A stretch of DNA of 64,000 bases, taken from Alphaproteobacteria bacterium. GTDB lineage: Bacteria; Pseudomonadota; Alphaproteobacteria; UBA828. The stretch's first letter is position 1. Each line of letters starts with the position of its first letter. This document shows, one piece after another, positions 27,501 to 47,329 of the stretch. The position numbers and the translations under genes were made by a program. Where the stretch lies: assembly GCA_965237415.1 (NCBI GenBank), contig CBDEFM010000001.1:260205-324204 (forward strand), written 5' to 3'. The notes beneath the pieces are model-generated. The model did no database searches. It worked only from the letters and a program-made list of their open reading frames with translations, and was not told the DNA's origin.

Positions 27501-28799
27501 GGCGAGAATGAGGAGGATGGCAGTCGGGCCGGGTTCCGGTCACGCAGCGTGACGGAACGCGACCTGCTGACCGGGACGTCGTTCTCGCTGACGGGCGAGG
27601 CCGCGGCGGACGGCGGCTACGCGTCGCTGTGGGGCCGGGGCGCGGTCTCAAGCTTCGACGGCCGCGACGGCGACCTCACGCTCGACGGCGAGGTGACGAG
27701 CGCCATGCTCGGGGCGGACTGGACGCGCGACCCCGGATCGGGGTCCGGGGCAGGTGCGTGGACCGCCGGGCTTCTGGTGTCGCATTCGCGCGGCGACGGC
27801 AGCTACCGGGGCGAGGGCGAGGGCAAGGTCGAGAGCGCGCTGACCGGGCTCTATCCCTATGGGCGCTATGCGGTGAGCGACCGCGTGACGGTCTGGGGCG
27901 TGGCCGGCTACGGGTCGGGCACGCTCACGCTGACGCCGAAGAACCCGGTGGAGGGCGAGGACGACAGGCCGATCGAGACCGATATGAGCCTGACGATGGG
28001 CGCGGTGGGCGTGCGCGGGGTGATGATCGAGGCGCCGGCCGAAGGCGGCCCGGAACTCGCGGTCAAGTCGGACGCGATGATGGTGCGCACGAGCTCGGAG
28101 GCGGCAAGCGGCAGCGGCGGCAATCTCGCGGCGGCGGAGGCCGACGTGACCCGTCTGCGGCTCGGTCTGGAGGGGAGCTGGCGCGGCATCGAGGCCGGCG
28201 GCGGCGAACTGACGCCGCGTCTCGAGATCGGGCTTCGCCATGACGGCGGCGATGCCGAGACCGGCTTCGGCCTCGACCTCGGTGGCGGGCTTGCCTGGTC
28301 GCATCCGGCGAGCGGGGTCTCGGCCGAGCTCAGCGGGCGCGGCTTGCTGACCCACGAGGCCGGCGGCTTCCGCGACCGTGGTATCTCGGGCTCGCTCGGC
28401 TGGGATCCGCGGCCGGAGACCGGGCGCGGGGTGAGCCTCACGCTGACCCAGACGCTGGGTGCGTCGGCCTCGGGCGGCATGGACGCGCTCTTGTCGCGCG
28501 GCACCCTGGCGGATCTGGCGGCCAACGACGACGGGGCGGACGATCTGCAGCGCCGCCGTCTGGAGCTCCGGCTCGGCTACGGCGTCTCCGCCTTCGGGGA
28601 CCGGTTCACGGCGACGCCGGAGATCGGGCTCGGCCTGTCGGACAGCGCGCGCGACTACAGCCTCGGCTGGCGGCTCGGTCTCGACCGGTCCGGACCGAAC
28701 GCGCTCGAACTCCGGCTCGAGGCGACGCGGCGCGAGAGCGCAAACGACAACGCGGACCCGGAGCACGGCATCGGGTTCAAGCTGACGGCGAGCTGGTGA
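24600..28799 (+). CDS. Autotransporter with Calx-beta and Big-like passenger modules (about 1,399 aa)
   Basis: Signal peptide MARGTAAALLTLAVLLGVALPGSPAYA at ATG 24600. Two Calx-beta domains (..VDYATSDGTATAGADYTDTSGTLTFNAGETSKTVSVPVVDD..) and three 90-100-aa Big-like modules. The C-terminal about 470 aa is a beta-barrel translocator with alternating pattern, ending GFKLTASW. Confidence 0.85.
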   Translation: MARGTAAALLTLAVLLGVALPGSPAYASDVLWEASLTVGNYLTADEPHSERERGFRREYCVPESWGSYLGEDWSNLLEEDRSNYDMCYGSISDRTFEVDGRTYTLEGVFHWVSDEVFLLEFTRSVDMTPLLGKEFIVNGVTFRMADGSFPAGNRGDGIVWHAPQWNAAMGWEVGSTISVQIKESGPLTAKFRNLPNSHNREPALLGLYPFAFLLEFSEEVAVDADTLRSVLTVTGGEMTGIARRYPPRNQIWRITVQPASLVAPVMLTLTAKASCEDDGAICTADGRRMAEAVEAEVPGAPPPRVTNVAIPGSSGPGENGTWDTGEIVLAQVSFSVPVTLVKPGGREPTLGILLDGMRREAAYWTRTERTLLFRYTVTAEDDGARNAWVVSNGLSLNGTTLRDEIDRDANLGFSIAPPLPGLSVADVTVTEAAGATADFVVTLSPAASETVTVDYATSDGTATAGADYTDTSGTLTFNAGETSKTVSVPVVDDAHEDSGETFTLTLSNASGGEAYLADASATGAIENDDPAVEATPLTAEVRDISVEAHDGSTAFTFELRFSEDVTGLSYATLRNSAFSVTNGQVTRSRRLVQGKNRRWEITVAPDGNDDVTITLPATTDCAATGAICNEDGRPLSAAVTATVPHTAQAQTDTPPPPDFRVRFEDIPAVHDGTSAIVFKVKFNTKPKASYSYVTMRDGTLVVRQGGAAIAVTRAKRLNKPHNDQWEITVNPVSKANMTVAIRQTASCSETGAICTETDEPLANGGLSQTILGPPGLRVMDAEVREAADATVDFSVILSPVSSATVTVNYATADDTATAGSDYTATSGTLTFEPGVTLKRVSVPVLDDVLDDDGETFTLTLSNPSGANAYLVDATATGTIRNSDPLQQAWLARFGRTVADQVIEAVQGRIQAPPRPGVAVSLAGQAIGGDGSLSGAGSAEPDGADARASLAEETEARSRLETMSNWLQGENEEDGSRAGFRSRSVTERDLLTGTSFSLTGEAAADGGYASLWGRGAVSSFDGRDGDLTLDGEVTSAMLGADWTRDPGSGSGAGAWTAGLLVSHSRGDGSYRGEGEGKVESALTGLYPYGRYAVSDRVTVWGVAGYGSGTLTLTPKNPVEGEDDRPIETDMSLTMGAVGVRGVMIEAPAEGGPELAVKSDAMMVRTSSEAASGSGGNLAAAEADVTRLRLGLEGSWRGIEAGGGELTPRLEIGLRHDGGDAETGFGLDLGGGLAWSHPASGVSAELSGRGLLTHEAGGFRDRGISGSLGWDPRPETGRGVSLTLTQTLGASASGGMDALLSRGTLADLAANDDGADDLQRRRLELRLGYGVSAFGDRFTATPEIGLGLSDSARDYSLGWRLGLDRSGPNALELRLEATRRESANDNADPEHGIGFKLTASW

Positions 28800-29456
28800 G
28801 GGCGCGGCGATGCGTCCCCTCGCCCACCCGTTCCGCGGAGCCGGCGCCCGGACCTCAGGCCCGGGTGACCTTCCAGAGGACCTTGCCGACGATATGGATG
28901 TCCGCGGCAAGGCAGGTATAGGCCGGGTAGCCCGGGTTGACCGAGAGCAGGCGCAGGCTCGGCGGGCCCGGCTCGCGGACCGGCTCGACGCGCTTGACGA
29001 CGAGGCCGTCGCCGTCCCACAGCACGAACAGCTCGCCGGCGCCGGGCATGGTGCGCCCGGTGTCGACCACCAGGCGGTCGCCCTCGCGCAGCTCCGGCTC
29101 CATGGAGATGCCGCGCACCTTGATGATGCGCAAGGCCCCGGGCTCGGCGTCGCCCTCGTGGCGGATCATCGCCTCGGGGAGCCGCCAGCGGGCCTTCTCA
29201 AGCACGAAGTCGTCGTTCCAGGCGCCGGGTCCGGCGGCGGCCTCGATCTCCATCTCGGCGACGCCGGTGGTGCGGGGCCGGGTACCGCGGTCCTTCTTCT
29301 TCCAGGGCTTGGGGGCCGGGAGCTCGGCATGGCGCAGCCCGGCCGGATCGCAGTCGAGCAGCGTGCCGAGCGCCTCGCTGTCCTGGAAGGAGAGCACGCG
29401 GGGCATGCCGCGGGCGAGATATTGCTGGAGATAGGCCTTGTTGCGGCCGATGGCGA
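27261..29456 (+). repeat. Copy 1 of a 2.2-kb direct repeat (autotransporter beta-domain, intergenic spacer, and 3' three-quarters of the repressor gene)
   Basis: About 95-99% identical to 45815..47998 by eye, with a 24-bp indel (DPGSGSGAGAW vs DAW) and a small indel in the spacer. Identity drops sharply upstream of 27261 and ends abruptly at 29456. Confidence 0.9.
28855..29456 (-). pseudogene. CI/LexA-like S24 peptidase repressor, 5'-truncated duplicate (HTH lost, peptidase domain retained)
   Basis: Nearly identical to residues about 27-225 of the protein at 47397..48074. Homology breaks at 29456 within the HTH (..IGRNKAYLQQYLARG). GISMEP (Ser) and VVKRV (Lys) are retained. Confidence 0.8.
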
Positions 29457-30421: not shown

Positions 30422-31183
30422 TCATGACTTGGTAGCAGCGTCGGCATCATCGGTGCGCATGGACGTGCCGTGCAGCTCGATCCGGGTGGCGCCGTGGACG
30501 AGACGGTCGAGGATTGCATCGGCGAGGGTGGGATCGTTGAGCTGCCGGTGCCAGTCGGCGACCGGGAGTTGGCTGGTGGCGACCACCGAGCGCCGGCCGA
30601 AGCGATCATCGAGTATCTCGAGGAGGTCGCGTGCCCGCGCGCCGTCGATCGGCGCCAGGCCCCAGTCGTCGAGGATGAGCACCTCGATGCGGGCAAGATC
30701 GCGGTAGAGCTTCAGTATGGTGCCCTCGCCATGGGCGATCCGCAGATCGGTGAGCAGCCGCGGCACGCGCAGGTACTGGGCTTGGTACCCTTCGAGGCAG
30801 GCCTTGTGGGCGAAGGCGCACGCGATCCAGGACTTGCCGGTGCCGCAGGGGCCGGTGATCAGGATATTGGCGCCGTTGCGGACCCACACGCAGTCGCCGA
30901 GGCCGAGCACGAGGCTGCGGTCGAGACCGCGGGGGCGGCTCAGGTTGATGTCCTCGAAGCAGGCGTCCTGGTGGCGGAGCTGGGCCTTCTTGAGCCGCCG
31001 CTGTAGGGCTCTGGATCGGCGCTCGGCGATCTCGCGGTCGATCAGCAACGCGAGGCGGTCCTCGAAGGTCATGTCATCGAGGTCGTGGCGCGCCATCTGT
31101 TCTAGGAAGGCGGCCTGCATCCCGGGTAGGCGCAGCTTGGCTATGCGCGCGGCCAGGGGGTGGGATACGGCGTTATCGGTCAT
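30422..31183 (-). CDS. istB: IS21 helper ATPase IstB
   Basis: 253 aa. Walker A GPCGTGKSW, Walker B VLILDDWG. Overlaps the istA stop. Confidence 0.9.
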   Translation of the reverse strand: MTDNAVSHPLAARIAKLRLPGMQAAFLEQMARHDLDDMTFEDRLALLIDREIAERRSRALQRRLKKAQLRHQDACFEDINLSRPRGLDRSLVLGLGDCVWVRNGANILITGPCGTGKSWIACAFAHKACLEGYQAQYLRVPRLLTDLRIAHGEGTILKLYRDLARIEVLILDDWGLAPIDGARARDLLEILDDRFGRRSVVATSQLPVADWHRQLNDPTLADAILDRLVHGATRIELHGTSMRTDDADAATKS

Positions 31184-32709
31184 CTGTAATACTCCGGTCC
31201 TCTAATGTTCGGATGATCGAGGGGCAGGGCCTCGGGTTCCTGCTCGGCGGCGGTGCGATCGGCGCCGGTGCGCAGGATGTTGTCGAGGCCGCGATAGGTT
31301 CGGGTGCCGAGCTCCAGCGCGTAGCGGCAGGCGGCGTCGAAGCGCGCCGGCTCGTGGCCGTTGGCGAGCCGCAGAACGCCGTAGCACGAGCGGAAGCCGA
31401 ACTCCGGATTGGGATTGCGCTCCATGACCGCCGTGACGAAGGCGTGGACATGGGGGCCGAGATCCCGGGCCTTGTCCTCCAGCCGGACGCGGGTGTCCTC
31501 GACGCCGGCGCGCTGATGTGCCTGCGGCTGGTGTTCCCTGAGCGTGGTGGCGCGGCCTCTGGCCTGGCTGCGGAGATGGCTGGCAATCTGCCGGCCTCGG
31601 TGGAAGACGTCGATGACCGATCCGCGCAGGCGGACATCGACCTCCTTGCCGACGTACTGGTAGGGCACCGAGTAGAAGTGGCGGTCGATGGCGATGTGGT
31701 AATCGCGGTGGACCGTGTTCTTGCGCCACTGCGTGCGCTGCCAGCGCCGGTCCGGCAGGGACCGCATGTGGGGGAGATCGACACTCTCGAAACGGCTGTA
31801 GCGGTTCCCGCCCGTGCCATCGGCATAGGGGCGCTCGTTGATCTTCCGGGCCCGGACGGCGATCGCCCGGTTCAGCGACGCCAGATCATGGAAGACATGG
31901 TTGCGCAGCGGCGCCAGGATCCTGCGCTCAACGTGAAGCACTCCTTGTTCGACGAGTCCCTTGTCGCGCGGGCGCCGGACCCGCGCCGGCAGGCCCTGGA
32001 CGCCGTAATGTTCGAGCAGATCGGCGTAGGTCTCGTTCAGGACCGGCTCGTAGCGCGACGGCTGCGTCACCGCCGGCTTGATGTTGTCGGGCACCACCAG
32101 CTGCGGCGCCCAGCCCATGTCCTCGAAGCAGCGCACGTGCGAAGCGCACCAGTCCTCGATCTTCTGGGTCAGCGTCGCCTCGGCGTAGAGCCGCCCCGAC
32201 ACGCCCATCGAGGCCACGAACACCTGCGCCTCGTGCTCGACCCCGTCGACCAGGAGCGCAATCGTCATGCCGGCGTAATCGACGAACAGCCGCTCTCCGG
32301 GACGGCGATTCTGGCGCATCGTCACGTCCCGGCGCGGTCGCCATTCCCGGAACCGGCGGCACCAGGTCGGATAGCTCATCCCGTCGGGATGCGTCTCGCG
32401 CCATTCCTCCCACAGCAGCATCAGAGTCATGCCGCGGCCGGACAGGTCTTTCTCGACCTTCGCCCAGTCCACCTCCGGCCAATCCGAAGCCCGGGACCTG
32501 CGGTAGAGCGCCGCCTCCAGGACCTCCTCGTCCAGGTCGCGGGCCTCCGGCCAGCTCAGCCCCGAGGCGGCAAACCGCTCCAGGATCTGCGCCACCGAGC
32601 GCCGCGCAAGGCCGCAGTGGGTGGCGATGGCGCGGGCGCTGCGGCCCTCGTCGAAATGAAACGCAAGAATCCTCTTCACCTTTCTCATCGGTAACCTTCC
32701 CTGTGCCAT
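31180..32709 (-). CDS. istA: IS21 transposase IstA
   Basis: About 509 aa. N-terminal HTH (RKVKRILAFHFDEGRSARAIATHCGLARRSV) and a DDE region (FVDYAGMT.., VVPDNIKPAV). The start is uncertain (ATG 32709 or 32688). Confidence 0.85.
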   Translation of the reverse strand: MAQGRLPMRKVKRILAFHFDEGRSARAIATHCGLARRSVAQILERFAASGLSWPEARDLDEEVLEAALYRRSRASDWPEVDWAKVEKDLSGRGMTLMLLWEEWRETHPDGMSYPTWCRRFREWRPRRDVTMRQNRRPGERLFVDYAGMTIALLVDGVEHEAQVFVASMGVSGRLYAEATLTQKIEDWCASHVRCFEDMGWAPQLVVPDNIKPAVTQPSRYEPVLNETYADLLEHYGVQGLPARVRRPRDKGLVEQGVLHVERRILAPLRNHVFHDLASLNRAIAVRARKINERPYADGTGGNRYSRFESVDLPHMRSLPDRRWQRTQWRKNTVHRDYHIAIDRHFYSVPYQYVGKEVDVRLRGSVIDVFHRGRQIASHLRSQARGRATTLREHQPQAHQRAGVEDTRVRLEDKARDLGPHVHAFVTAVMERNPNPEFGFRSCYGVLRLANGHEPARFDAACRYALELGTRTYRGLDNILRTGADRTAAEQEPEALPLDHPNIRGPEYYR

Positions 32710-32861
32710 CCCGTATCCCTCGGACCAATCGCGAAAGTCCGAGGCGTACGACGGCACCCTGAGTCGCACCAAAACCCGCCGCCCCGCAGGGGTGGCTACC
32801 TTGGTGAGATTGGGTGGCTACCTTGAGTGAGAATCGGTGGCTACCTTCGTGAGATTCCGCA

Positions 32862-33128
32862 CGCCAGCGCGTCGTCGCCGAAGATGTTGAGACGCGGAAC
32901 CACGTCGACCAGGCCGCGGATGTTGTCGATCATCGAATCGCGGAACACGAGCGGCTTGCCGTTGTCGTCTTCCTGCAACCGCTCCGAAACGCGCTCCACG
33001 GCTTCGCCCAGGCGCCGGTAGAGGTCGGCGACGGCATCGTGCAGCCGCTCCTCGATCTGGCGCTCGATGTCGCGCTTGACCCGGTCGGTGTCGTCGCAGG
33101 CCAGCTTGGCGATAAAGTGGTCGGCGTC
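32862..33128 (-). pseudogene. 5' part of the gene split by IS21 (itself 5'-truncated at a junction with an integrase fragment)
   Basis: ..DADHFIAKLACDDTDRVKRDIERQIEERLHDAVADLYRRLGEAVERVSERLQEDDNGKPLVFRDSMIDNIRGLVDVVPRLNIFGDDALA. The apparent ATG at 33143 is the antisense of integrase-fragment sequence and so is fortuitous. Confidence 0.55.
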
Positions 33129-33131
33129 GGG

Positions 33132-33332
33132 GACCTTCGTCATTCGTATGCGTCCCGGGCGCTGGCACTCGGCGAGAGCCTGACGGTCATCGGCCGGCTG
33201 CTCGGCCACAACAAGGTCGAGACCACCGCCAAGTATGCCCATCTGGTTCGCGACGCGGAAAAGGCCGCAGCCGCGCGCACCGGCGACAGCATCGGCGCCC
33301 AGCTCATGCCCGTCGGTGCCGAGGCGGCGTGA
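33132..33332 (+). pseudogene. Tyrosine-integrase C-terminal fragment
   Basis: DLRHSYASRALALGESLTVIGRLLGHNKVETTAKYAHL holds box II with the catalytic His and Tyr, ending at a stop at 33332. Confidence 0.75.
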
Positions 33333-34686: not shown

Positions 34687-34962
34687 TCACCGGTTGACGG
34701 CATCGCGGAGCGCCTTGCCGGCCTTGAACGACGGTGCCTTCGAGGCGGCGACGGCGATGCTTTCGCCGGTCGCGGGATTGCGGGCCTGTCTTGCCGCCCT
34801 GGCCCTGGTCGAGAAGCGCCCGAACCCCGCGATGGCGACGGTGTCGTCATGCGCCAGAGCGTCGGTGATGGCGGAGAATACGGCAGCGACGGCACGATTG
34901 GCGGTTGCGTTGTCCAGAGACGCCTCGGCGGCCACGCGGGCGGTCAATTCGGACTTGTTCAT
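34687..34962 (-). CDS. HU/IHF-family nucleoid-associated DNA-binding protein
   Basis: MNKSELTARVAAEASLDNATANRAVAAVFSAITDALAHDDTVAIAGFGRFSTRARAARQARNPATGESIAVAASKAPSFKAGKALRDAVN is a canonical 91-aa HU, including the RNPxTG arm. Confidence 0.9.
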   Translation of the reverse strand: MNKSELTARVAAEASLDNATANRAVAAVFSAITDALAHDDTVAIAGFGRFSTRARAARQARNPATGESIAVAASKAPSFKAGKALRDAVNR

Positions 34963-35774
34963 GGTGTATCCCCCGGGGTGCGATCGGACAGCCGCGGTCG
35001 GTGCGGCCTCCGGCAAGGGTGCCGATTCGCCGGGCGGCGATCAACGGGTGGTGTGACAACCCGGACCAACGGGTACGTCCCCGACCCGGCATGGCGTTGC
35101 GGGACGGGCTGAGTCGGGTTGGGGATGTCGAACCCGACATCGGGTACCGGGCAAGCGACCGGAGCCACGCGAGCCAACCGCGGTTGCCTCTGTGGACATG
35201 GCGATGTCTTCCGATATGAGCGTGGGCAGACGGCGGTGGCGGATTTGCCCGTCGCGGAGGACAGGCCGGCCGCGCGGATGCCCCGCGCCTCCGGATGCCC
35301 TCCCAGCATGAATTTCTACGCAAACGGCATTTTCGTTCCGGTCGGCACGCCGCCAATGAAAGCGGTGGTGCATGCGGTGCATGCGGATTGTCGAACGCGT
35401 CCCGATCCCGGTCGAGCGCGTCGGCATGCGGCAGGACCGGAGGGTTCCGAGAGCATCCGTGTCGTCGCGAGCGGCAGCCGACCGGCATCGATCGCCGCGA
35501 ACATCGGGCGCGTGAGATCCGGGCCGGTACCGCCTGGATGCGGGCGGTGTCGCATCGGAATCAGAAACGCCCGGAGAACGACGTGCCCCGGCGAGTACCC
35601 CACGTTCGGTCGGGGTTTGAATGACGCGACGGCCGCCCCATACCAATCGATGGAGAACATGCGGCCGGGCGCTCATGGCGGGAACCGTATGTTCGAGAAG
35701 AGAAAGGATGTCATTTGTGGAGTCGCCGCCGCCGGCGGCGATTTCACCCGTTCACCCTCGTTGCCGATGGCGCT

Positions 35775-35948
35775 CGGCGCTGATGGACACCGTGTCCGGG
35801 CGCAGCGCCCGGGCCGGCGCAGCGCCGGGAGCGAATTGGTGGCGAGCCTGCACAGGGGACGCTGGAAGACCACCGCGAAGGTGAATCGCTACGCCAAGCG
35901 GTTGCTCACCCGTCGCAGGCACGCGAGTGACCTCGCGCGGGCGCGGGT
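35775..35948 (+). pseudogene. Degenerate C-terminal remnant of a second Cre-like recombinase, opposite orientation to the intact one
   Basis: GADGHRVRAQ..LHRGRWKTTAKVNRYAKRLLTRRRHASDLARA compares with SGHSTRVGAAQ..LHAGRWKTTAMVNRYGERLLARRSGAAQLARL in the intact gene. Confidence 0.45.
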
Positions 35949-36830: not shown

Positions 36831-36864
36831 TTGGCTCGCGATAACTGTTGTTATCGCGAGCCAA
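36831..36864 (+). promoter_or_regulatory. 34-bp lox-like palindrome, site A: TTGGCTCGCGATA-ACTGTTGT-TATCGCGAGCCAA
   Basis: Perfect 15-bp arms around the asymmetric centre TGTT. The 13-8-13 layout is the same as loxP. It is identical to site B except that the centre is inverted. Confidence 0.6.
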
Positions 36865-37050
36865 CTTGTCAATTCCTGCGTTTCCGACCGGCGACCCGGA
36901 GGCTGCCCAGTCTCGACCCGAACATCGTAAGCCGTGCCGGAACTCGATACAACCGGTTGGTTCAAGGGCGGTTTCTTCCTCCCGGGACGCGCCGACTGTG
37001 ATGCGCGCGCCTCCCTCGCCCGGAAGCCGACCCTGAGCCCGGCGACGATT

Positions 37051-37065
37051 TTGGCTCGCGATAAC
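37051..37065 (+). promoter_or_regulatory. Isolated half-site TTGGCTCGCGATAAC
   Basis: Exact copy of one 15-bp arm without its partner, located 94 bp beyond the recombinase stop codon. Confidence 0.45.
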
Positions 37066-37158
37066 ATTTTCTGGAAATCCGCCCCTTGGCACGATTCCTG
37101 TCGGGCGCACGGCGCCGGACGCCGCCGTGGGTACGCCGCATGATACGCCACCGCGCCC

Positions 37159-38130
37159 CTACTCGCGATGCTGTAAACGGGCGAGCTGCGCCGCCCCGCT
37201 TCGCCGCGCCAGGAGGCGCTCGCCGTAGCGGTTGACCATCGCCGTCGTCTTCCACCGTCCCGCGTGCAGGATGGCCGCCATGCCGATGCCTTCGGCGACC
37301 ATGTCCTGCGCCGCCCCGACCCGTGTGCTGTGCCCGGAGATGCGCTCGACGACGTCGCCGGGCAATCCGGCACGCTCGGCCATGGCCTTGAAGATGCGCG
37401 GCACCTGGCTCGCATCGAGCCGCTCGCCGACCGCACCCCGGTTCAGCGAGCGGAAGAGCATGCCTTGGCACACGCCGCTTCGCTCGAGCCACTCGTGCAC
37501 CAGCGCCACGCTGTCGCGCGCAAGATACGCCGTCGCGCCCCGGCCTTCGGCGTCCGTCTTGGAGCGGCGCACCAGCACCGTGGCCGCGCCGTCGCGTTCT
37601 TCAACGATATCCGTCACTTGCAGCGCGACGAGCTCGCCCCGGCGCAGCAGCGTGTCGTAGGCGACGGCCAGTAGCGCGCGGTTGCGCGCATCGATGAGCC
37701 CATCGCCCATGGCGTCGAGCAGGCGCTCGCGCAGCGCCCCGGTGAGCCCCTTGGCCTGCGCCTGACGCCGGCCCGTTCGCCGGTGCATGCGCTGCAGCGC
37801 GCGTCGCACCGGCTCGCGTTGCGTCGTCTTTCCCACCCCCATCGCCCGGTGCGCGGCGGCGATGCTCGCCACGTAGCGGCGCACCGTCGCGGGCGCGCGG
37901 ACCCGGGCCATGGCGTCGACGAACGCGGCGAGGGTCTCGGCGCTCGCGGCCAGCGCCGGCTCACCGCGCTCGGTGCACCAGGCGGCGTAGATGGCGAGGT
38001 CGGAGCGCAGCGCCCGCTCGGTGTTGGCGCTCAGCGCCCCGCGCGCGGCCTTGGTGCAGGCGTCGAGCGTGTCCCGGTGAGTCTGGCCGTCGCTCTCGCG
38101 CGGCGGGTAGCGAACGGCGTCTACCAGCAT
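37159..38130 (-). CDS. Cre-like tyrosine recombinase
   Basis: 323 aa from ATG 38130 (MLVDAVRYPP). It is colinear with Cre landmarks: AAWC; RNRALLAVAYDTLLRRGELVALQVTDI (Cre RNLAFLGIAYNTLLRIAEIARIRVKDI); RRSKTD; SGHSTRVGAAQDM (Cre SGHSARVGAARDM); HAGRWKTTAMVNRY (Cre QAGGWTNVNIVMNY, catalytic Tyr). The track start 38184 merely reads through site B. Confidence 0.85.
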   Translation of the reverse strand: MLVDAVRYPPRESDGQTHRDTLDACTKAARGALSANTERALRSDLAIYAAWCTERGEPALAASAETLAAFVDAMARVRAPATVRRYVASIAAAHRAMGVGKTTQREPVRRALQRMHRRTGRRQAQAKGLTGALRERLLDAMGDGLIDARNRALLAVAYDTLLRRGELVALQVTDIVEERDGAATVLVRRSKTDAEGRGATAYLARDSVALVHEWLERSGVCQGMLFRSLNRGAVGERLDASQVPRIFKAMAERAGLPGDVVERISGHSTRVGAAQDMVAEGIGMAAILHAGRWKTTAMVNRYGERLLARRSGAAQLARLQHRE

Positions 38131-38167
38131 GGGGAAGCCTCCAGGTCCGTGGAATACGGCCCGGAGA

Positions 38168-38201
38168 TTGGCTCGCGATAACAACAGTTATCGCGAGCCA
38201 A
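38168..38201 (+). promoter_or_regulatory. 34-bp lox-like palindrome, site B: TTGGCTCGCGATA-ACAACAGT-TATCGCGAGCCAA
   Basis: Exact reverse complement of site A, so the two sites are in inverted orientation. It lies between the divergent recombinase and giant autotransporter genes. Confidence 0.6.
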
Positions 38202-38359
38202 ATCGAGTGCGGCGGGGCGACCGGTTCGGACGTGGGCGAAGACGAGGAGCCACGGGCGATGTCGGGGCCATGTCCGCCGTGTCTCGGCTGGGAAGGGGGA
38301 CGTCGGGCGCTCGCGCGCGGCGCCTGCGGCGACGAAGGCAAGGCCGGGGAGATGGGTTC

Positions 38360-41300
38360 ATGGCGAGAGTGAGACAGGCAACCGCGTCACGCGGCCGCAC
38401 GGGGGCGCCGGAAACCGCCTCGACGCAGTGGGGGGCGCGGTGTCGGCAGGAGAAGCGAGCGGCAATCGCGCCCGGGAAGACACCGGAGGCGGCACATGCG
38501 TCGCGACGGGAGCCGGTAGCACCCGTCTCCCGGCGGCGAGACTGCCCGCCTAGACCTTCTCCCACCGCGCGGTCCCCGCGCGGGCTATCTTCCTCCCTAC
38601 TCGCTTATTTCGCGGCCGTCCCGGCGGCGGCGCTGCGCTGCCTGTCCCCGGATCGGGGTCCGGGGCAAGCCCCGCGCGCGGTTTCCTCCCGGCGCCGCGG
38701 CCCGCCTGCCGCCGCGCTACGCGCCGGGGCGGGCATCGCCCTGCTGCTGCTCGCCATGCTGACCGCCCTGCCGGCCCAGGCGCAGACCGACACCACGGCG
38801 CCGACGCTCGTCACGACCAGCGCTCGCGGACCCACAGTCATTAGCACTGGCTTATCTCTCTACTTGATTTACGACGAGAATCTGGACCACGACAACCATC
38901 CACCGGTCAGCGCCTTCAGCGTCATGGTCGATAGCAGTCCGATCACGGTGACAAGCGTAGAGGAAAGAACAACTATCAGCTTGAGGCTGAATCTGTCCCC
39001 CACCATCCGCCAGGGCCAGACCGTCACGGTGAGCTACACCGATCCGAGCTCGAGCAACGACGCCAACGCAATCCAGGACGCGGCCGGCAACGACGCCGCC
39101 ACCTTCGCGAACCAGGCGATACGCAACATATCCACCGTCACCGGCATCCCCGGCGCCCCGACGGGGCTGTCGGCGACGAAGATGGGCGCCACGCAGATCG
39201 ACCTTTCCTGGACCGCGCCGACGGACACCGGCGGTGCGGAAATCACCGGCTACAAGATCGAGTGGTCGGCCAACGGCAATGCCCCCTGGAATGAGCTGAT
39301 CGCGGACACCGGCAACACGGACACGACGTATTCCGACACCGGGCTCGCCTCGAAGACCACGCGCCACTACCGGGTTTCGGCGAGAAATTCCTTCGACCTC
39401 GGCCCCGGCCCCGCCTCGAACGTCGACGACGCCACCACCGACGACATCGTCGGGCCGGTGCTGGTGAGGGTGTCGATCAACGCGTCCGGCGATAATGTAA
39501 GGTTTTTCTTTGACGAGGCGCTTGACCAGCGCTCAGGAAAAACCCCGCCGGAGAGCGCCTTCGAGGTGCTGGCCGATGGAGTCCGGGTAGCGACAGACGG
39601 TTTCGACGCGGTTTCGGAACCCCACCGTATTGTGCTCGTAACTACCGCCCCGACCATCAAGCAGGGCCAGACGGTCGTCGTCACCTACACCGACCCGAGC
39701 ACGGGCAACGATCCCGTCGCCATCCAGGACCTGGCGGGCAACGACGCGGCGACCTTCACCACCGGCGTGTCGGGCGTCCCCGCGGTCGTCAACAGTTCCA
39801 ACGTCGCGAATCCCGCCCCGGACGCGCCGACGGGGCTGACGGCGACGAAGATGGGCGGCACGCAGATCGACCTTTCCTGGACGGAGCCGGCGGACCCTGG
39901 CGATGCGGTAATCACGGGCTACTGGATCGAGGTCTCGGATACCGGCGCTACCGGCCCCTGGACCGAGCTGATCGCGGACACCGGCAACACGGACAAGACG
40001 TATTCCGACACCGGGCTCGCCTCGGAAACCACGCGCCACTACCGGGTTCGGGCGATCAATTCCTTCGGCCCCGGCCCCGCCTCGAACATCGACTCTGCCA
40101 CCACCGACGACATCGTCGCGCCGGAGCTGGTGAGGGTGTCGATCAACGCGTTCGGCGATAATGTAAGGTTTTTCTTTGACGGGGCGCTTGACCAGCGCTC
40201 AGGAAAGACCCCGCCGGAGAGCGCCTTCGAGGTGCTGGCCGATGGAGTCCGGGTAGCGACAGACGGTTTCGACGCGGTTTCGGAACCCCACCGTATTGTG
40301 CTCGTAACTACCGCCCCGACCATCAAGCAGGGCCAAACGGTCGTCGTTACCTACACCGACCCGAGCACGGGCAACGATGCCGCCGCCATCCAGGATGCCG
40401 CCGGCAACGACGTGGCGACATTCACCACCGGAAAGGCGGGCGTCCCCGCGGTCGTCAACAGTTCCAATCAACCCGGCGTGAAGATATCCAAGACGGAACT
40501 GAGCATCGACGAAGGCGGCACCGGCACCTACACGGTGGCGCTCTATTCGCAGCCGACGGCGACGGTGACGGTCACGCCGTCGCGCACCAGCGGCGATGCG
40601 GACATCACCGTGAGCGGCGGCCCCCTCACCTTCACCACGACGACCTGGAATGTGGCGCAGACGGTGACGGTACGCGCGGCCGAGGATGCGGATTTGGTTC
40701 GCGATACGGCCGTGATCGGCCACGCGGTGAGCGGCGGCAACTACGCCTCGGTCATGGCCGCTTCGGTGACCGTCACCGCGGCTGACAACGATGCGTCCAA
40801 CGAGCCTGCCACCGGCAAGCCGACGATTTCAGGGACGGCGCAGGTCGGCCAGACGCTGACCGCGGCGAAGGGCAACATCAACGACCCAAACGGGCTGACC
40901 AAGGCCGACAACGACGAGACGGGCTTCGCCTACACCTACCAGTGGATCCGGGTGGATTCCGACGGCACGTCGAACCCGATGAATGTCGGGACCTCGAGCA
41001 CCTACACGCTGGCGGCGTTGGACGAGGACAAGAAGATCAAGGTGGAAGTGAGCTTCCACGACGACAATGGCCACGCGGAGACGCGGACGAGCGACGCGTA
41101 TCCGTCCGCGGACACGGTCCTGCCCTCTTCGGCGGTGAGCCTGTTGCTGTCGCCTGCATCGATCCGCGAGAACGGCGGCAGTGCCAGGATCAGGGCAAGG
41201 CTGAACGTGGCGTCGAGTGCCGAGACGACGGTCACGGTATCGGTCGAGCCGGTCCCGCCGGCGGTCGCCGGGGACTACGCGCTGAGCGCCAACACGGTGC

Positions 41301-44300
41301 TGAGGATTGCCGCCGGGCGGACCTTCAGCACGGGCCTGGTGACGCTGACGGCGGTGAACAACGATGTGGACGCGGACGACAAGACGGTCATCATCCTGGG
41401 CGATGCGGAGAACAGCGCGGGCGTTGGCGGTCCGGCCGAGGAGACGCTGACGATCGCGGACGACGATCGGGGCGTGCGGCTGGGCACGCGGTCGCTCGCG
41501 ATCGATGAGGGCCGCAGCAAGGGCTACACGGTGGTGTTGGGGTCGCGGCCCACGGGGACGGTGACGGTGACGCCGCAGGTTCCGCCCGGCATGGTGACGG
41601 TGTCGGGGCCGCTCCGGTTCACGCCGAGCACATGGGACGAGCCGCAGACGGTGACGGTGACGGCGGGCCAGGACGAGGACGAGGAGGACGAGTCGGTCCA
41701 GGTGACGCACGTTGTGTCGGGCGCGGATTACGGCGGCGTGACCGCGGACATCGTGCGGGTCACGGTGAGCGACGACGACGGCGGCACGGGCGTGCTGGAG
41801 GTGGGTGTGTATGACGGCTCGGACGGGGCCGGCGTCAAGGACCCGCCGCCGCAGGTGCATTTCGGGCAGCCGTTCAGGCTCGACCTGGTGTGGTCGCATC
41901 TGCGGACGAAGCATTGGGACAATCCGGAGTACGCGATCGGGCCGACCCGGGCGATCCGGGCGGTCGGCGGGACGGTGCGTGCGGTGCGGGGCCGGTTCAG
42001 CCCGCCCAGTAAGGGGGACCACGGCTGGGACCAGGCGCGCCTGACGCTCGAGGTCACGCCCGAGGCGAGCGACGGCAGCGACGACGTGACGCTGGTCCTG
42101 GAGCCGATGGATTGCAGCAGCAATGACGCGCGAGCGCTGTGCGCCTTCGCCAGCATCGGGAAGTGGACCGGCCTGGCGAAACGGGTGCGCTTCACGGTGC
42201 GCGGTATCACCGGTCCGCCGGAGGTGGCGCCGGCGGAGCTGGACCTGACGGTGACCCCGCAGGAGCGGCGCGGCACGGATATGTTCCTGGTGAGCTTCGA
42301 CGCCGACGAGGAGGGGACGCGCTTCCGGCTGCAGACGCAGGCGGCCGGCGGGGATTGGACGAGAACGCGCGAGTGGACCGGGGCGATGCGCTCGGAGAAC
42401 CAGCATCGGGTGACGGTCGACGGGGTGTCGCACGATGACGCCTACGAGTTCCGGGTGCGCTGGGAGAACCGCTTCGGGCCGGGGCCGTGGGCGCAAGCGA
42501 GCACGGCCGGCGCGGCGCCGGCGGCGCCGACAAGGCTCACGCTCACGGCGATGTACGACGCCAAGAGCCTGGCGCTCGCCTGGACCCCGGCGGCAGGCGG
42601 GGTGCGGATCGACCGCTTCCAGTACCGGATCGAGCGAATCCGTAGCGAGGAGCTGGTTATCCTTTCGGACACGGGGCCGATTCAATATTTGGGCAATTGG
42701 ATCGACATTCCGAACAGCGGAACGGGCGGCGCGAACCACCGTTCGTGGACGATCGGGGGGCTTGCGAACATATGGGCCGCCAGGATCCGGGTGCGCGCGG
42801 TGAGCGCGTCGGGCCGCGCGGGCGCGGCCTCGGCGGAAGCGGTGGCGGCGGTCGACGTGCCGCGGGTGGTGGACATCTCGATGGCGTCGGACCCCGGTGC
42901 CGACGGGTACTACACGTACGGAAACAGGATCGGGATCAACGTGAGGTTGAGCCGTCCGGTCCGCATCCCGGGTAACGATCGGGGACCGTCGCTGGAGGTC
43001 GAGATCGGAAGCCGCGTGTACAGCCTGGGGCTGGTGTCGATGCGGCAGTCGGTGGCGCATGAACTGATCGGACAGGCGCCGTTGTCGGGCGACGTGCTGT
43101 TCTTCGAGCACAGCCTTGGTACGGGTGACGTGGACCACAACGGGATCCGGGTGCCGGCCGGCGCGCTCAAAGGCAATGGCGGGCGGCTGCTCGACCTGAC
43201 ACCCGCGGGAGAAGACCAGGTGGCGGACCTCGCCGTGAGCACGGCAAAAACCTTCCCGGCGCACAAGGTGAACACGGTCCCGCCGGGCATCGTGCGCATG
43301 ACCTGGCAGCAGAACCTGGACACGAAGGGCGTGGTGCGGGGCGCCGAGGTGCGCATCCACTACGACCGCGACCTCGACCCGGATTCGAGGCTGGATCCCG
43401 GCAGGGTCCAGTACCGGGTGGCGTATTCGGAGTCGCGGGCGCTCGGCCGCAGCGTGACGGGACTGAGCATCGGCGACGCCACCGACGACGGGATCGACAA
43501 CCCCCGGACGGTGCGGCTGGTGCTGGCGCCGGTGGTCCACGATCCGAGCACCAACCCGCGCAACAGCCCGACGCCGCCCGAGACCGTGACGGTGACCTAT
43601 TCGGGAATGAAAGTGAGCGGGAACACCGGGCGGCGATACGGCCCCTTCGATACGCTGGGGAACCCCCTCGCGGGCTTCACCCGGGCGGCGGAGCACCTGA
43701 CCGCGACGCAGGCAGCGTTGGCGGCGGAGTTCCGAAACGTACCGCCCGAGCACAACAGCCCGTTCACCTTCGAGGTGCATTTCAGCGAGGAGGTCGCGCT
43801 CACCGAAGAGATGCTGCTGAACTCGGTCTTCACGGTGACCAACGGCACGGTGTCGGCCGCGCGGCGGCTCAATCCGCCGAGCAACATCGCCTGGGAGATC
43901 ACGGTCGATTCGATCACCGAGGAGGCGGTGACGGTGGTGCTGCCGGAGACCACGGACTGCACCGTGGCGGGCGCGATCTGCACCTGGGACGAGCGCCCGC
44001 TCTCGGCGGAGATTTCGGCGACGGTGGCCGGCCCGCAGATCGTGGCGACGAGCGTGGTGACGAGCGCGGCGGTGACCAACGGTCCCGGAGACAATGGCAC
44101 CTGGGACACCGGCGAAACCGTCGAGGCCGAGGTGCGCTTCAGCGCGCCGGTGACGGTGGTGGCGCCTCCGGGCTCCGGGCCGATCCTCGCCATCCTGCTC
44201 GACGGCACGCGCCGCGAGGCGGCGTACACCGGCGGTTCAGGCACCGACACGCTGCGCTTCAGCTACACGGTTGCGGAAGCGGACAACGGAGCCCGGAAGG

Positions 44301-47300
44301 CGCGCGTTGCCCCGAACGGGCTCGCGCTCAACGGAACGACCATCGGAGACAGTGAAGGCGTCGCGGCCGATATCGGTTTCTCTACCGCGCCGTATGTGAC
44401 GGCTGTCGAACTCGCGGCGGATGGCTCGGGGGACGGGATCTGGACCCCAGGCGAGACTATTGCCGCCCGCCTCACCTTCAGCGAGGCGGTGACGGTGGCG
44501 GGCGGCACGCCGTATCTCTGGATCACGGTCGCAGGGATGCCGGGCGCGCTCGGCTACGCGTCCGGATCGGGAAGCGACACGCTGGTCTTCTCCATAGAGG
44601 TGCCGGGCGGGAGCCTCTCCGAAATCGAGGTGACGGCGGACAGTCTCAACGCCAACGGCGCGGCCATCGTGTCGCAGGCGAGCGGCATCGCGGCGGAGCT
44701 CGGCCATGACGGCACGGCGCCGGAGGCGGCGCCGGAGAACGCGGGCGCCACCGCGCTGACGGCGGCGTTCGCGGAGCTGCCGGAGAGCCACGGCGGCGCG
44801 GCGTTCACCTTCGAGCTCCGCTTCAGCGAGGCGTTCCCGATCGGCTACGAGACGATGCGCGACGATGCGTTCACGGTGACGAACGGGCGTGTGACCGGGG
44901 CGCGACGCCTCGACAATCCGCACCGCGAGTCCGTGCGCATGGAACCCAACCGGGTATGGGAGATCACCGTCGAGCCCGACACGGACGCCGGAGACGTCTC
45001 GATTGCGCTGCCTGAAACGACCGACTGCACCGCGGCCGGCGCGGTCTGCACCGGGGACAACCGCCCGCTCACGGCGGAGATTTCGGCGACGGTGGCCGGC
45101 CCGGCGCAGGCGGTGACGCCCCCGCCGCCGGGCTTCCGGGTCCGCTTCGAGGACTTCCCGTCGGAGCATGACGGGACCAGCGCGGTCGTCTTCAAGGTGA
45201 TGTTCAACAAGAAGCCGGCGAACTACAGCTACCGCACGATGCGCGACAACACGCTCCTCGCCCGGCAGGGGAGCCAAGCGGTCACGCCCAAGCGGGCCAA
45301 ACGCCTCAACGCACCGCACAGCGACCAGTGGCGGATCACGATCGAGCCGGCCTCCAAGGCGGACATGCACGTCGAGATCCGCCACACCACGGCGTGCACC
45401 GAAACGGGCGCGGTGTGCACGGCGGAGAACGAACAGCTCTCGAACCGGCTCTCGAAGACGATCCTCGGCCCTCCGGGGCTCGCGGTGGCGGACGCGCGGG
45501 TGGAGGAAGCGGCGAACGCGACGGTGGACTTCGCGGTGACGCTCAGCCGCGCGTCATCGTCGACGGTGACGGTGGACTATGCGACCTCGGACGGCACGGC
45601 GACGGCGGGCAGCGACTACACGGCGACGTCGGGGACGCTGACCTTCGCGCCGGGCGACACGGCGAAGACGGTGTCGGTGCCGGTGCTGGACGACGCCCAT
45701 GACGAGGACCATGAGACGTTCACGCTGACGCTCTCCAACCCCTCGGGCGGCAACGCCTGGCTCTCCGACGCCACGGCGACGGGCACGATCGAGAACACCG
45801 ACAAGATGCCGCAGGCGTGGCTGGCGCGCTTCGGGCGCACGGTGGCCGACCAGGTGATCGACGCGGTGCAGGGCCGCATTCAGGCGCAGCCGAGTCCCGG
45901 GGTCGCGGTGAGTCTCGCGGGCCAGGCGATCGGCGCCAACGGATCGTTGTCCGGGGCCGGTTCCGCGGAGCCGGACGGTGCGGACGCGCGGGCGACGCTG
46001 GCCGAGGAGACCGAGGCCCGGTCGCGGCTGGAGACGATGTCGAACTGGCTGCAGGGCGAGAATGAGGAGGATGGCAGTCGGGCCGGGTTCCAGTCACGCA
46101 GCGTGACGGAACGCGACCTGCTGACCGGGACGTCGTTCTCGCTGACCGGCGAGGCCGCGGCGGGCGGCGGCTACGCGTCGCTGTGGGGCCGGGGCGCGGT
46201 CTCGCGCTTCGACGGCCGCGACGGCGATCTCACGCTCGACGGCGAGGTGACGAGCGCGATGCTCGGGGCGGACTGGACGCGCGATGCGTGGACCGCCGGG
46301 CTTCTGGTGTCGCATTCGCGCGGCGACGGCAGCTACCGGGGCGAGGGCGAGGGCAAGGTCGAGAGCGCGCTGACCGGGCTCTATCCCTATGGGCGCTATG
46401 CGGTGAGCGACCGCGTGACGGTCTGGGGCGTGGCCGGCTACGGGTCGGGCACGCTCACGCTGACGCCGAAGAACCCGGTGGAGGGCGAGGACGACAGGCC
46501 GATCGAGACCGATATGAGCCTGACGATGGGCGCGGTGGGCGTGCGCGGGGTGATGATTGAGGCGCCGGCCGAAGGCGGCCCGGAGCTCGCGGTCAAGTCC
46601 GACGCGATGATGGTGCGCACGAGCTCGGAGGCGGCAAGCGGCAGCGGCGGCAATCTCGCGGCGGCGGACGCCGATGTGACCCGTCTGCGTCTCGGGCTTG
46701 AGGGAACCTGGCGCGGCATCGAGGCCGGCGGCGGGGAACTGACGCCGCGTCTCGAGGTGGGCGTGCGCCATGACGGCGGCGACGCCGAGACCGGCTTCGG
46801 CCTCGACCTCGGTGGCGGGCTTGCCTGGTCGCATCCGGCGAGCGGGATATCGGCCGAGCTCAGCGGGCGCGGCTTGCTGACCCACGAGGCCGGCGGCTTC
46901 CGCGACCGTGGTATCTCGGGCTCGCTCGGCTGGGATCCGCGGCCGGAGACCGGGCGCGGGGTGAGCCTCACGCTGACCCAGACGCTGGGTGCGTCGGCCT
47001 CGGGCGGCATGGACGCGCTCTTGTCGCGCGGCACCCTGGCGGATCTGGCGGCCAACGACGACGGGGCGGACGATCTGCAGCGCCGCCGTCTGGAGCTCCG
47101 GCTCGGCTACGGCGTCTCCGCCTTCGGGGACCGGTTCACGGCGACGCCGGAGATCGGGCTCGGCCTGTCGGACAGCGCGCGCGACTACAGCCTCGGCTGG
47201 CGGCTCGGTCTCGACCGGTCCGGGGCGAACGCGCTCGAACTCCGGATCGAGGCGACGCGGCGCGAGAGCGCCAACGACAACGCGGACCCGGAGCACGGCA

Positions 47301-47329
47301 TCGGGTTCAAGCTGACGGCGAGCTGGTGA
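38360..47329 (+). CDS. Giant autotransporter adhesin (Big-like/FN3/Calx-beta passenger, about 2,990 aa); start codon uncertain
   Basis: The ORF is open from 38129. A signal-peptide-like segment RRRGPPAAALRAGAGIALLLLAMLTALPAQA lies at about 38690-38780. The passenger has alternating Big-like and FN3 modules, Calx-beta domains (VDYATSDGTATAGSDYTATSGTLTF) and three Cys-pair Big-like modules. The C-terminal beta-domain is nearly identical to that of 24600..28799 and ends GFKLTASW. ATG 38360 is the nearest upstream canonical in-frame start. Confidence 0.8.
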   Translation: MARVRQATASRGRTGAPETASTQWGARCRQEKRAAIAPGKTPEAAHASRREPVAPVSRRRDCPPRPSPTARSPRGLSSSLLAYFAAVPAAALRCLSPDRGPGQAPRAVSSRRRGPPAAALRAGAGIALLLLAMLTALPAQAQTDTTAPTLVTTSARGPTVISTGLSLYLIYDENLDHDNHPPVSAFSVMVDSSPITVTSVEERTTISLRLNLSPTIRQGQTVTVSYTDPSSSNDANAIQDAAGNDAATFANQAIRNISTVTGIPGAPTGLSATKMGATQIDLSWTAPTDTGGAEITGYKIEWSANGNAPWNELIADTGNTDTTYSDTGLASKTTRHYRVSARNSFDLGPGPASNVDDATTDDIVGPVLVRVSINASGDNVRFFFDEALDQRSGKTPPESAFEVLADGVRVATDGFDAVSEPHRIVLVTTAPTIKQGQTVVVTYTDPSTGNDPVAIQDLAGNDAATFTTGVSGVPAVVNSSNVANPAPDAPTGLTATKMGGTQIDLSWTEPADPGDAVITGYWIEVSDTGATGPWTELIADTGNTDKTYSDTGLASETTRHYRVRAINSFGPGPASNIDSATTDDIVAPELVRVSINAFGDNVRFFFDGALDQRSGKTPPESAFEVLADGVRVATDGFDAVSEPHRIVLVTTAPTIKQGQTVVVTYTDPSTGNDAAAIQDAAGNDVATFTTGKAGVPAVVNSSNQPGVKISKTELSIDEGGTGTYTVALYSQPTATVTVTPSRTSGDADITVSGGPLTFTTTTWNVAQTVTVRAAEDADLVRDTAVIGHAVSGGNYASVMAASVTVTAADNDASNEPATGKPTISGTAQVGQTLTAAKGNINDPNGLTKADNDETGFAYTYQWIRVDSDGTSNPMNVGTSSTYTLAALDEDKKIKVEVSFHDDNGHAETRTSDAYPSADTVLPSSAVSLLLSPASIRENGGSARIRARLNVASSAETTVTVSVEPVPPAVAGDYALSANTVLRIAAGRTFSTGLVTLTAVNNDVDADDKTVIILGDAENSAGVGGPAEETLTIADDDRGVRLGTRSLAIDEGRSKGYTVVLGSRPTGTVTVTPQVPPGMVTVSGPLRFTPSTWDEPQTVTVTAGQDEDEEDESVQVTHVVSGADYGGVTADIVRVTVSDDDGGTGVLEVGVYDGSDGAGVKDPPPQVHFGQPFRLDLVWSHLRTKHWDNPEYAIGPTRAIRAVGGTVRAVRGRFSPPSKGDHGWDQARLTLEVTPEASDGSDDVTLVLEPMDCSSNDARALCAFASIGKWTGLAKRVRFTVRGITGPPEVAPAELDLTVTPQERRGTDMFLVSFDADEEGTRFRLQTQAAGGDWTRTREWTGAMRSENQHRVTVDGVSHDDAYEFRVRWENRFGPGPWAQASTAGAAPAAPTRLTLTAMYDAKSLALAWTPAAGGVRIDRFQYRIERIRSEELVILSDTGPIQYLGNWIDIPNSGTGGANHRSWTIGGLANIWAARIRVRAVSASGRAGAASAEAVAAVDVPRVVDISMASDPGADGYYTYGNRIGINVRLSRPVRIPGNDRGPSLEVEIGSRVYSLGLVSMRQSVAHELIGQAPLSGDVLFFEHSLGTGDVDHNGIRVPAGALKGNGGRLLDLTPAGEDQVADLAVSTAKTFPAHKVNTVPPGIVRMTWQQNLDTKGVVRGAEVRIHYDRDLDPDSRLDPGRVQYRVAYSESRALGRSVTGLSIGDATDDGIDNPRTVRLVLAPVVHDPSTNPRNSPTPPETVTVTYSGMKVSGNTGRRYGPFDTLGNPLAGFTRAAEHLTATQAALAAEFRNVPPEHNSPFTFEVHFSEEVALTEEMLLNSVFTVTNGTVSAARRLNPPSNIAWEITVDSITEEAVTVVLPETTDCTVAGAICTWDERPLSAEISATVAGPQIVATSVVTSAAVTNGPGDNGTWDTGETVEAEVRFSAPVTVVAPPGSGPILAILLDGTRREAAYTGGSGTDTLRFSYTVAEADNGARKARVAPNGLALNGTTIGDSEGVAADIGFSTAPYVTAVELAADGSGDGIWTPGETIAARLTFSEAVTVAGGTPYLWITVAGMPGALGYASGSGSDTLVFSIEVPGGSLSEIEVTADSLNANGAAIVSQASGIAAELGHDGTAPEAAPENAGATALTAAFAELPESHGGAAFTFELRFSEAFPIGYETMRDDAFTVTNGRVTGARRLDNPHRESVRMEPNRVWEITVEPDTDAGDVSIALPETTDCTAAGAVCTGDNRPLTAEISATVAGPAQAVTPPPPGFRVRFEDFPSEHDGTSAVVFKVMFNKKPANYSYRTMRDNTLLARQGSQAVTPKRAKRLNAPHSDQWRITIEPASKADMHVEIRHTTACTETGAVCTAENEQLSNRLSKTILGPPGLAVADARVEEAANATVDFAVTLSRASSSTVTVDYATSDGTATAGSDYTATSGTLTFAPGDTAKTVSVPVLDDAHDEDHETFTLTLSNPSGGNAWLSDATATGTIENTDKMPQAWLARFGRTVADQVIDAVQGRIQAQPSPGVAVSLAGQAIGANGSLSGAGSAEPDGADARATLAEETEARSRLETMSNWLQGENEEDGSRAGFQSRSVTERDLLTGTSFSLTGEAAAGGGYASLWGRGAVSRFDGRDGDLTLDGEVTSAMLGADWTRDAWTAGLLVSHSRGDGSYRGEGEGKVESALTGLYPYGRYAVSDRVTVWGVAGYGSGTLTLTPKNPVEGEDDRPIETDMSLTMGAVGVRGVMIEAPAEGGPELAVKSDAMMVRTSSEAASGSGGNLAAADADVTRLRLGLEGTWRGIEAGGGELTPRLEVGVRHDGGDAETGFGLDLGGGLAWSHPASGISAELSGRGLLTHEAGGFRDRGISGSLGWDPRPETGRGVSLTLTQTLGASASGGMDALLSRGTLADLAANDDGADDLQRRRLELRLGYGVSAFGDRFTATPEIGLGLSDSARDYSLGWRLGLDRSGANALELRIEATRRESANDNADPEHGIGFKLTASW
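38790..40471 (+). repeat. About 2.5 tandem copies of a 666-669-bp unit (Big-like plus FN3 module) inside the giant gene
   Basis: 39431-39805 and 40097-40471 are nearly identical (offset 666 bp). The FN3 parts at about 39148-39430 and 39818-40085 are about 85% identical (offset 669). Confidence 0.85.

Follow-up and report, generated by a model that had tools for sequence, protein, structure and literature searches.

In phage P1, the Cre system uses one loxP site, which serves circularisation or multimer resolution. Cre/loxP, together with Dre, Vika, VCre and a larger predicted set, belongs to the same enzyme family as the recombinase considered here, and in all of these systems a 34-bp site with inverted arms and a short asymmetric centre lies beside the recombinase gene; the predicted set comprises about 500 Cre-type enzyme/site pairs recognized by a site next to the gene, and paired inverted sites are not discussed there (PMC10250229). 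The present analysis concerns positions 36831–38201 of a 64,000-nucleotide stretch of alphaproteobacterial DNA (contig CBDEFM010000001.1, positions 260,205 to 324,204; hereafter, the window, numbered from its first letter), where, unlike in P1 and in the single-site plasmid relatives of the module, two inverted lox-like sites bracket a Cre-type recombinase gene. Compared with Cre/loxP, this candidate inversion module also adds a fifth arm, a motif resembling the IHF consensus, an outward promoter-like element and naturally diversified spacers.

A tyrosine recombinase gene located between inverted sites has precedents in Flp/FRT and in the pneumococcal hsdS inversion loci. The initial annotation of this stretch knew of no description of the arrangement; a full-text literature search also returned no description of the recombinase-between-inverted-sites arrangement of this family. 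The Flp/FRT system of the yeast 2-micron plasmid resembles the module in having the recombinase gene between two inverted sites; the full FRT contains a third, accessory arm, and recombination flips one plasmid half against the other. It is, however, a eukaryotic copy-number device, its sites form part of 599-bp repeats, and Flp shows no close sequence relation to the module enzyme and was not among the matches of the PDB search. The Hin/hix, Gin/gix and Cin/cix systems are similar in that the recombinase gene lies inside its own invertible segment and an outward-facing choice of expression is made, but Hin, Gin and Cin are serine recombinases requiring a Fis-bound enhancer and are unrelated in fold and chemistry to the tyrosine recombinase of the module. 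Shared features are also seen in FimB/FimE–fimS and related promoter invertons driven by tyrosine recombinases, with a tyrosine recombinase acting on inverted repeats, a promoter inside the segment, IHF-type bend sites, a surface-structure gene and one strongly favored orientation, although inversion, promoter and bend site are all putative in the present case. Moreover, fimS is a 314-bp segment with 9-bp repeats and recombinase genes located outside it, whereas most of the module is taken up by the recombinase gene and its repeats are complete 34-bp Cre-type core sites. The pdif modules of Acinetobacter plasmids are likewise discrete units bounded by inverted sites, found in many contexts and with homology ending at the sites, although they carry no recombinase of their own. 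Finally, SEs, RITs and Tn554 are tyrosine-recombinase elements with inverted ends that move, and they differ from the module in having two to three recombinases with helper proteins, a size of at least 6 kb and single-arm ends rather than full palindromic core sites (PMC10214605).

The sequence TTGGCTCGCGATAACTGTTGTTATCGCGAGCCAA is located at 36831–36864 on the forward strand, and its exact reverse complement at 38168–38201; these were the only two matches in the window at up to three mismatches, against 0.00 expected from 100 dinucleotide-preserving shuffles. Each site is a perfect 15 + 4 + 15 palindrome, and the inverted repeat reaches 35 nt when one flanking base is counted. The distal site at 36831–36864 (site A of the initial annotation and site 2 in recombinase-oriented numbering) has 15-nt arms around TGTT, and a homologous site was found in 31 distinct pairs. 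The proximal site at 38168–38201 (site B, or site 1, respectively) carries the spacer AACA on the forward strand, and in relatives it always lies 30–53 nt upstream of the recombinase start. An isolated fifth 15-nt arm, TTGGCTCGCGATAAC, is present at 37051–37065 (forward strand), 186 nt inward of site A and 93 nt past the stop codon of the recombinase gene, with no further good copy in the 64 kb. This accessory half-site keeps its position in relatives, and its sequence changes in step with the arms of the element to which it belongs. So, the flanking of a 1.3-kb segment by exact inverted 34-bp sites and the single extra arm, both pointed out in the initial annotation, were borne out by pattern search and shuffles. 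The loxP geometry assigned at the same time holds as far as 34-bp lox-like inverted sites are concerned; the asymmetry among relatives reaches at most the central 6 nt, which fits a Cre-type 13-8-13 or a 14-6-14 division and proves neither. The possibility that the palindrome is a REP-like element or a generic terminator, raised by the same annotation, was rejected: the 64 kb held no other copy, a terminator scan was negative, and about 0.6 Mb of related loci contained the site nowhere but next to these recombinase genes.

The only open reading frame between the sites with coding-type codon bias is located at 37159–38133 on the reverse strand. It encodes a Cre-type tyrosine recombinase of 324 amino acids, with a GGAGG Shine–Dalgarno sequence and an ATG 34 nt from site B. 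The motifs quoted for it in the initial annotation are present, and its colinearity with Cre was confirmed: in a PDB search, Cre was the best solved relative (E = 3e-23, against only 6e-07 for XerD), with residues 29–309 aligned to residues 32–330 and 29% identity to P1 Cre. The protein matched Pfam Phage_integrase (E = 2.6e-20), and all NCBIfam Xer models scored it far below their cut-offs. Residues R165, K192, H268, R271, W294 and Y303, which align with the catalytic R, K, H, R, W and Y of Cre, were invariant in 23 homologues. According to Pfam, the protein contains the SAM-like and catalytic domains only, without an arm-binding domain. As judged by these matches, the enzyme is closer to Cre than to the Xer or phage-integrase branches. 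More than 2400 homologues were found, many of them exactly 323 amino acids long and 73–86% identical, and several can share one contig. A conserved hairpin in the 5′ leader of the gene was considered and ruled out (consensus energy about 0, one compensatory pair), and no Rfam family was found in 34.5–39.5 kb.

The same plan was found wherever the recombinase was at least about 60% identical to that of the window. Loci were collected from reference genomes (L001–L027), metagenomes (L028–L073), plasmids (L074–L075) and ENA assemblies (L076–L093), and the module is present in about 45 of them (31 distinct site pairs), in Alpha- and Gammaproteobacteria, Vicinamibacterales (Acidobacteriota) and Binatia; many of these loci come from sponge symbionts, and several records name sponges. 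In each case, a full site precedes the start codon by 30–53 nt (about 36), the half-site follows the stop codon after about 95 nt, and the inverted second full site lies about 200 nt beyond; the module is 1.37 kb long in the window and 1.30–1.54 kb in the family. Between the window and relatives from other phyla, DNA similarity extends from the outer edge of one site to the outer edge of the other and no further, which indicates that the module is a discrete unit, and protein identity across different phyla amounts to 75–86%. From these comparisons, the module appears to be conserved and horizontally spread. The initial annotation had proposed checking whether the site always occurs as inverted pairs around this recombinase family. 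The pair, the extra arm and the spacing were indeed kept in about 45 related loci, but relatives at 45–58% identity (soil and peat contigs, Methylobacterium and Methylorubrum plasmids) have a single site, upstream of the gene only, so that the pair is a derived, dedicated feature. The modules of L079–L088, recovered from seven samples, have identical recombinase protein and site sequences, with DNA 95–100% identical over the shared regions; their arms are TTGACGCTCGATAAC, they lack the TTGAC motif next to the distal site described below, and they are located amid small genes without a Pfam match.

An indication that the two sites act on each other came from their spacers. The central 6 nt were exact reverse complements between the two ends in 26 of 31 distinct site pairs, in spite of seven spacer types (TGTA, TGTC, TGTT, TACT, TATT, TAGA and TCTC), and the match persisted even where the arms had drifted at 8–12 of 34 positions. 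Note that a further group (L038, L042 and L050) was mis-scored in this comparison; a looser scan pairs their ends with three mismatches over 24 nt. Cre-type enzymes require identical crossover regions in both partner sites (PMC10250229), so the repeated concerted change of the spacer at both ends indicates that the two sites exchange strands with each other, and, since they are inverted, the product of such recombination would be inversion of the segment. From one element to the next, the distal 6 nt likewise vary in concert across all four arms and the half-site, and this co-variation marks the half-site as a true binding site. Copies within one genome can have common arms and different spacers (TACT in L001 and TGTT in L002), which would prevent cross-talk between switches.

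Additionally, a candidate outward promoter was found just inside the distal site, at 36844–36872 on the reverse strand. It consists of TTGACA (36867–36872), a 17-nt gap formed by 2 nt and the inner arm, and AACAGT (36844–36849), formed by the spacer and GT, and transcription from it would leave the module across site A, in the direction of lower coordinates. Across the family, 23 of 27 elements have a TTGAC(N) that stops 2 nt inward of the distal site, four of these 23 being offset by one or two bases, and it stands 17 nt ahead of the spacer + GT hexamer, often TACAGT; the NNNAGT pattern occurs at the distal end only. The TTGAC motif is independent of the arm sequence, and there is no similar motif at the mirror position of the proximal site. 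On the strength of this cross-locus conservation, the element looks like an outward promoter. An IHF-consensus-like motif, AACCAACCGGTTG (consensus WATCAANNNNTTR, one mismatch), is located at 36950–36962 on the reverse strand, midway between the half-site and site A. Of 27 elements, 17 carry such a motif with up to one mismatch, on the same strand and 87–99 nt inward of the distal site, and it was exact in L004, L005 and L012. Such a motif may serve as a bend bringing the accessory arm to the core site, and it hints at help from a host factor, which would be a difference from Cre.

Taken together, positions 36831–38201 can be read, with a probability of about 0.5, as a self-contained inversion module of the Cre type that carries an outward promoter and strongly favors the observed orientation. 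In such a module, recombinase dimers would bind both core sites, the bent accessory arm would aid assembly of the synapse at the distal end, and strand exchange within the matching 6–8-bp centres would invert the whole segment, the recombinase gene included. The only other cargo would be the promoter-like TTGACA, 17-nt gap and spacer + GT just inside the distal site. In the present orientation, this element would face an HU-family gene (in relatives, HU or regulator genes); in a flipped module, it would drive transcription across site B into the 5′ end of the gene for a giant surface protein. The assemblies would then show the prevailing state, in which the giant gene is probably "off", and the choice of the "on" state, like the use of IHF or HU, is conjectural.

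A number of results weigh against this reading. Among the approximately 45 loci with the module, none showed an intact copy in the opposite orientation: neither all-against-all megablast of 74 loci nor the comparison of 10 contigs from seven samples encoding an identical recombinase, nor that of four syntenic Azotimanducaceae lineages, revealed one. The search covered consensus assemblies, which would hide a state present in a minority of cells. They do exclude a balanced switch, and any inversion must be rare, strongly biased or conditional. The self-inverting switch proposed in the initial annotation thus keeps its inverted sites, co-varying spacers and Cre-type enzyme, and it lacks an intact flipped module in the assemblies. 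In three loci the large gene is on the distal side (L023, L026 and L047), all of them with decayed sites, and the upstream spacer of L023 has the wrong sense for a simple inversion. The spacers do not match in L003, L077, L006 and L026. As for the promoter, the −10 hexamer AACAGT of the window matches the consensus at just three of six positions, and a sigma-70 consensus scan of 36.6–38.9 kb called zero promoters. No promoter of the recombinase gene was identified, and the only upstream sequence inside the module is the site with the adjoining 34 nt. The presumed outputs are not uniform either: the module also occurs in unrelated contexts (recJ–prfB, TetR/ABC and phage-like regions), and only about half of the contexts have right-hand genes that run in the direction of the candidate promoter. 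Lastly, the 9-kb gene, designated an autotransporter in the initial annotation, finds no support for this name: Pfam across its 3066 amino acids gave only SWM_repeat, fn3, Calx-beta and Ig-like domains, without a C-terminal beta-barrel translocator domain.

The exact ends of homology and the scatter of contexts are also what would be expected if the module were a small transposon-like mobile element, with the palindromic sites as terminal inverted repeats, the recombinase moving or copying the 1.37-kb unit, and inversion incidental or absent. This is the main rival, and we consider it unlikely. Several copies can be present per genome (four in OZ245021.1), several proteins map to one contig, the protein is 75–86% identical across phyla, and the contexts include the housekeeping recJ–prfB gap, which elsewhere is filled by other mobile DNA. 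The loci L076 and L078 are alike from site 1 rightward with nothing in common to the left, recombinase fragments occur nearby (window 35837–35918; L023, L024 and L060), and transposons of this enzyme class with inverted ends are known, as mentioned above for SEs, RITs and Tn554 (PMC10214605). At the same time, those elements depend on two to three recombinases with helper proteins and have single-arm ends, whereas a Cre-type enzyme acting on two complete inverted core sites inverts the DNA between them and cannot excise a circle. No target duplication was seen in the form of flanking direct repeats, and no clean empty site was found; at recJ–prfB, approached through RecJ homologues, no precise empty site was obtained, the relatives carrying a RAYT-like gene, an integrase island or another gene order. 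Three of the four copies in OZ245021.1 (L001, L002 and L010, 3716–7565) share flanks over 3–4 kb and may be duplications of the locus, and the position of the module relative to the 5′ end of the neighboring gene is too regular for random insertion.

The flank swap between L076 and L078, which is exact at site 1, shows that contexts do change at the sites, and it would also fit recombination between different modules or molecules, by which cassettes would be exchanged or flanks shuffled at the same spacer, the module serving as a hub that reassorts giant-gene loci and regulators. An inverted pair of identical lox sites is the configuration of engineered cassette exchange; the foreign spacer GCCA in the distal site of L003 and L026, the LuxR-type neighbor found in either orientation between loci, and the inverted recombinase fragments and second recombinase copies nearby would all fit it. 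We think this explanation improbable, because the spacers differ between same-genome copies, blocking exchange between them, because what is conserved is the matching within a pair, and because the fixed outward TTGAC and the constant orientation of the left gene would be left unexplained. The least probable of the readings considered is a recombinase of plasmid origin that has ceased to rearrange DNA, in which case the palindromes would chiefly be operators, used in autoregulation or looping, and the pair would simply have been inherited. The uniform orientation in all loci, the site over the upstream region of the gene in single-site plasmid relatives and the 34-nt distance from the proximal site to the start codon agree with such operators. 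Against this stand the invariance of all six catalytic residues, the presence of an accessory arm and a bend site typical of recombination complexes, and the co-variation of the spacer. The spacer is not recognized by Cre-type proteins when they bind, yet its two copies match in 26 of 31 pairs despite drift of the arms.

Returning to the inversion module, a broader version of this reading, possible though rather doubtful, would make it a portable plug-in phase switch, equipped with its own two sites, accessory arm, bend site and outward promoter, that has spread among sponge and marine symbionts of different phyla, lies at the 5′ end of genes for giant eukaryote-like adhesins and toggles transcription between the adhesin gene and a regulator or HU gene on the other side, the diversity of spacers avoiding cross-reaction; such diversity would then supply orthogonal lox variants ready for use. 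If the module flips, it would provide compact, transferable on/off control of giant adhesin-like proteins (cadherin, fn3, SRCR, Calx-beta) in uncultured symbionts, many of them from sponges, which bears on how symbionts manage host contact, and it would be a rare bacterial case of Cre-type inversion with the enzyme gene inside the flipped DNA. If instead the unit moves, it would be the smallest transposon known that depends on a single tyrosine recombinase. Whatever the natural role, the family offers dozens of enzyme/site pairs with naturally co-evolved arms and spacers, useful for genome engineering and for the study of spacer identity and accessory-arm control in Cre-type reactions.

The probable regulated target, a gene for a giant secreted repeat protein with SWM_repeat, fn3 and Calx-beta domains (Pfam), occupies 38360–47329 on the forward strand and is divergent from the recombinase gene. 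Its start is uncertain: the nearest canonical in-frame start is ATG 38360, which has a GGAGA Shine–Dalgarno sequence and lies 158 nt from site B, and the signal-like hydrophobic segment of the protein begins near 38.72 kb. No ATG, GTG or TTG is present within 118 codons upstream of this segment (window 38129–38760), and a start at ATG 38360 would add about 130 Arg/Pro-rich residues; the same oddity was seen in L004, L007 and L008/L009, other relatives being normal. A start inside the module, at ATG 38129, was ruled out: this open frame lacks conservation across loci and is to be expected at 70% G+C. A large surface-protein gene pointing away from the 5′ end of the recombinase gene was found in at least 20 loci, with Ig-like, cadherin, SRCR, fn3, SWM or Calx-beta domains in varied combinations at this left position (in recombinase-oriented numbering), and the left neighbor was transcribed away from the module in every context checked. 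The other left neighbors were prfB–lysS (L014, L016, L017 and L093), a TetR gene (L076), a MalT-type LuxR regulator (L018), phage-like genes and, in L079–L088, small genes of unknown type.

On the other side, the right-hand genes comprise LysR with HU, HU alone, LuxR-type regulators in either orientation, an LRR protein or recJ. In the window, an HU/IHF-family gene is located at 34687–35016 on the reverse strand (NCBIfam HU-beta, E = 1.6e-27), about 1.8 kb beyond site A and on the strand of the candidate outward promoter. In L001, L002, L007 and L010, an HU homologue is correspondingly placed and oriented, and L027 has an HU gene too, without an intact recombinase gene; the 96-amino-acid genes in L076 and L078 are not HU. 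The linkage is modest, since L001, L002 and L010 belong to one genome and only about three independent genomes carry both module and HU, so that HU as a constant part of the module was upheld only in part. It is possible that the HU gene encodes an accessory factor or is a second output. The proposal that the switch gates the giant gene on one side or the HU/orphan genes on the other agrees with the large surface gene in at least 20 loci; the HU linkage is modest, and the module also occurs in other contexts.

Several observations concern recombinase sequences near the module. At 35837–35918 on the forward strand, in the interval separating the HU gene from site A, part of the C-terminus of a second Cre-like recombinase, LHRGRWKTTAKVNRYAKRLL, is encoded in inverted orientation relative to the intact gene, and comparable inverted C-terminal fragments occur in L023, L024, L046 and L060. 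A second paralogous recombinase without recognizable flanking sites was found in L003 (6970–8280), L020 (3734–5542) and L028 (8606–9628), downstream of a LuxR-type regulator and 2–3 kb beyond the module; by analogy with FimB and FimE, it could act on the same sites. A second pair of sites around the extra recombinase was looked for in L028 and L020, and there was none. In the recJ–prfB hot spot of Azotimanducaceae, the module is present in four lineages (L014, L016, L017 and L093), and this gap otherwise holds a gene with a faint Y1_Tnp match (L091) or an arm-type integrase island (L092).

The wider surroundings of the module in the window contain other traces of mobile DNA. An IS21-type istA/istB pair lies at 30422–32772 on the reverse strand, on the other side of the module from the giant gene, and a C-terminal fragment of an unrelated phage-type integrase at 33039–33332. 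An IS1595-type transposase (18191–19222) and a DNA methylase–HNH fusion (19562–21037) are located inside 18–24 kb, where G+C falls in the range 0.56–0.59. Directly after the giant gene, at 47400–55615, S24-peptidase (reverse strand), HTH_17, TrbI and TraC/VirB4 genes follow, which places the locus in conjugative-element-like DNA, and the giant gene and the module may ride on an integrative conjugative element. The window contains two paralogous large surface-protein genes (24366–28796 and 38360–47329), with the module only at the second. Moreover, a 3.3-kb duplication (26206–29456 and 44754–47998, 88.7% identity) spans the 3′ part of a Calx-beta giant gene and the S24-peptidase gene that follows it.

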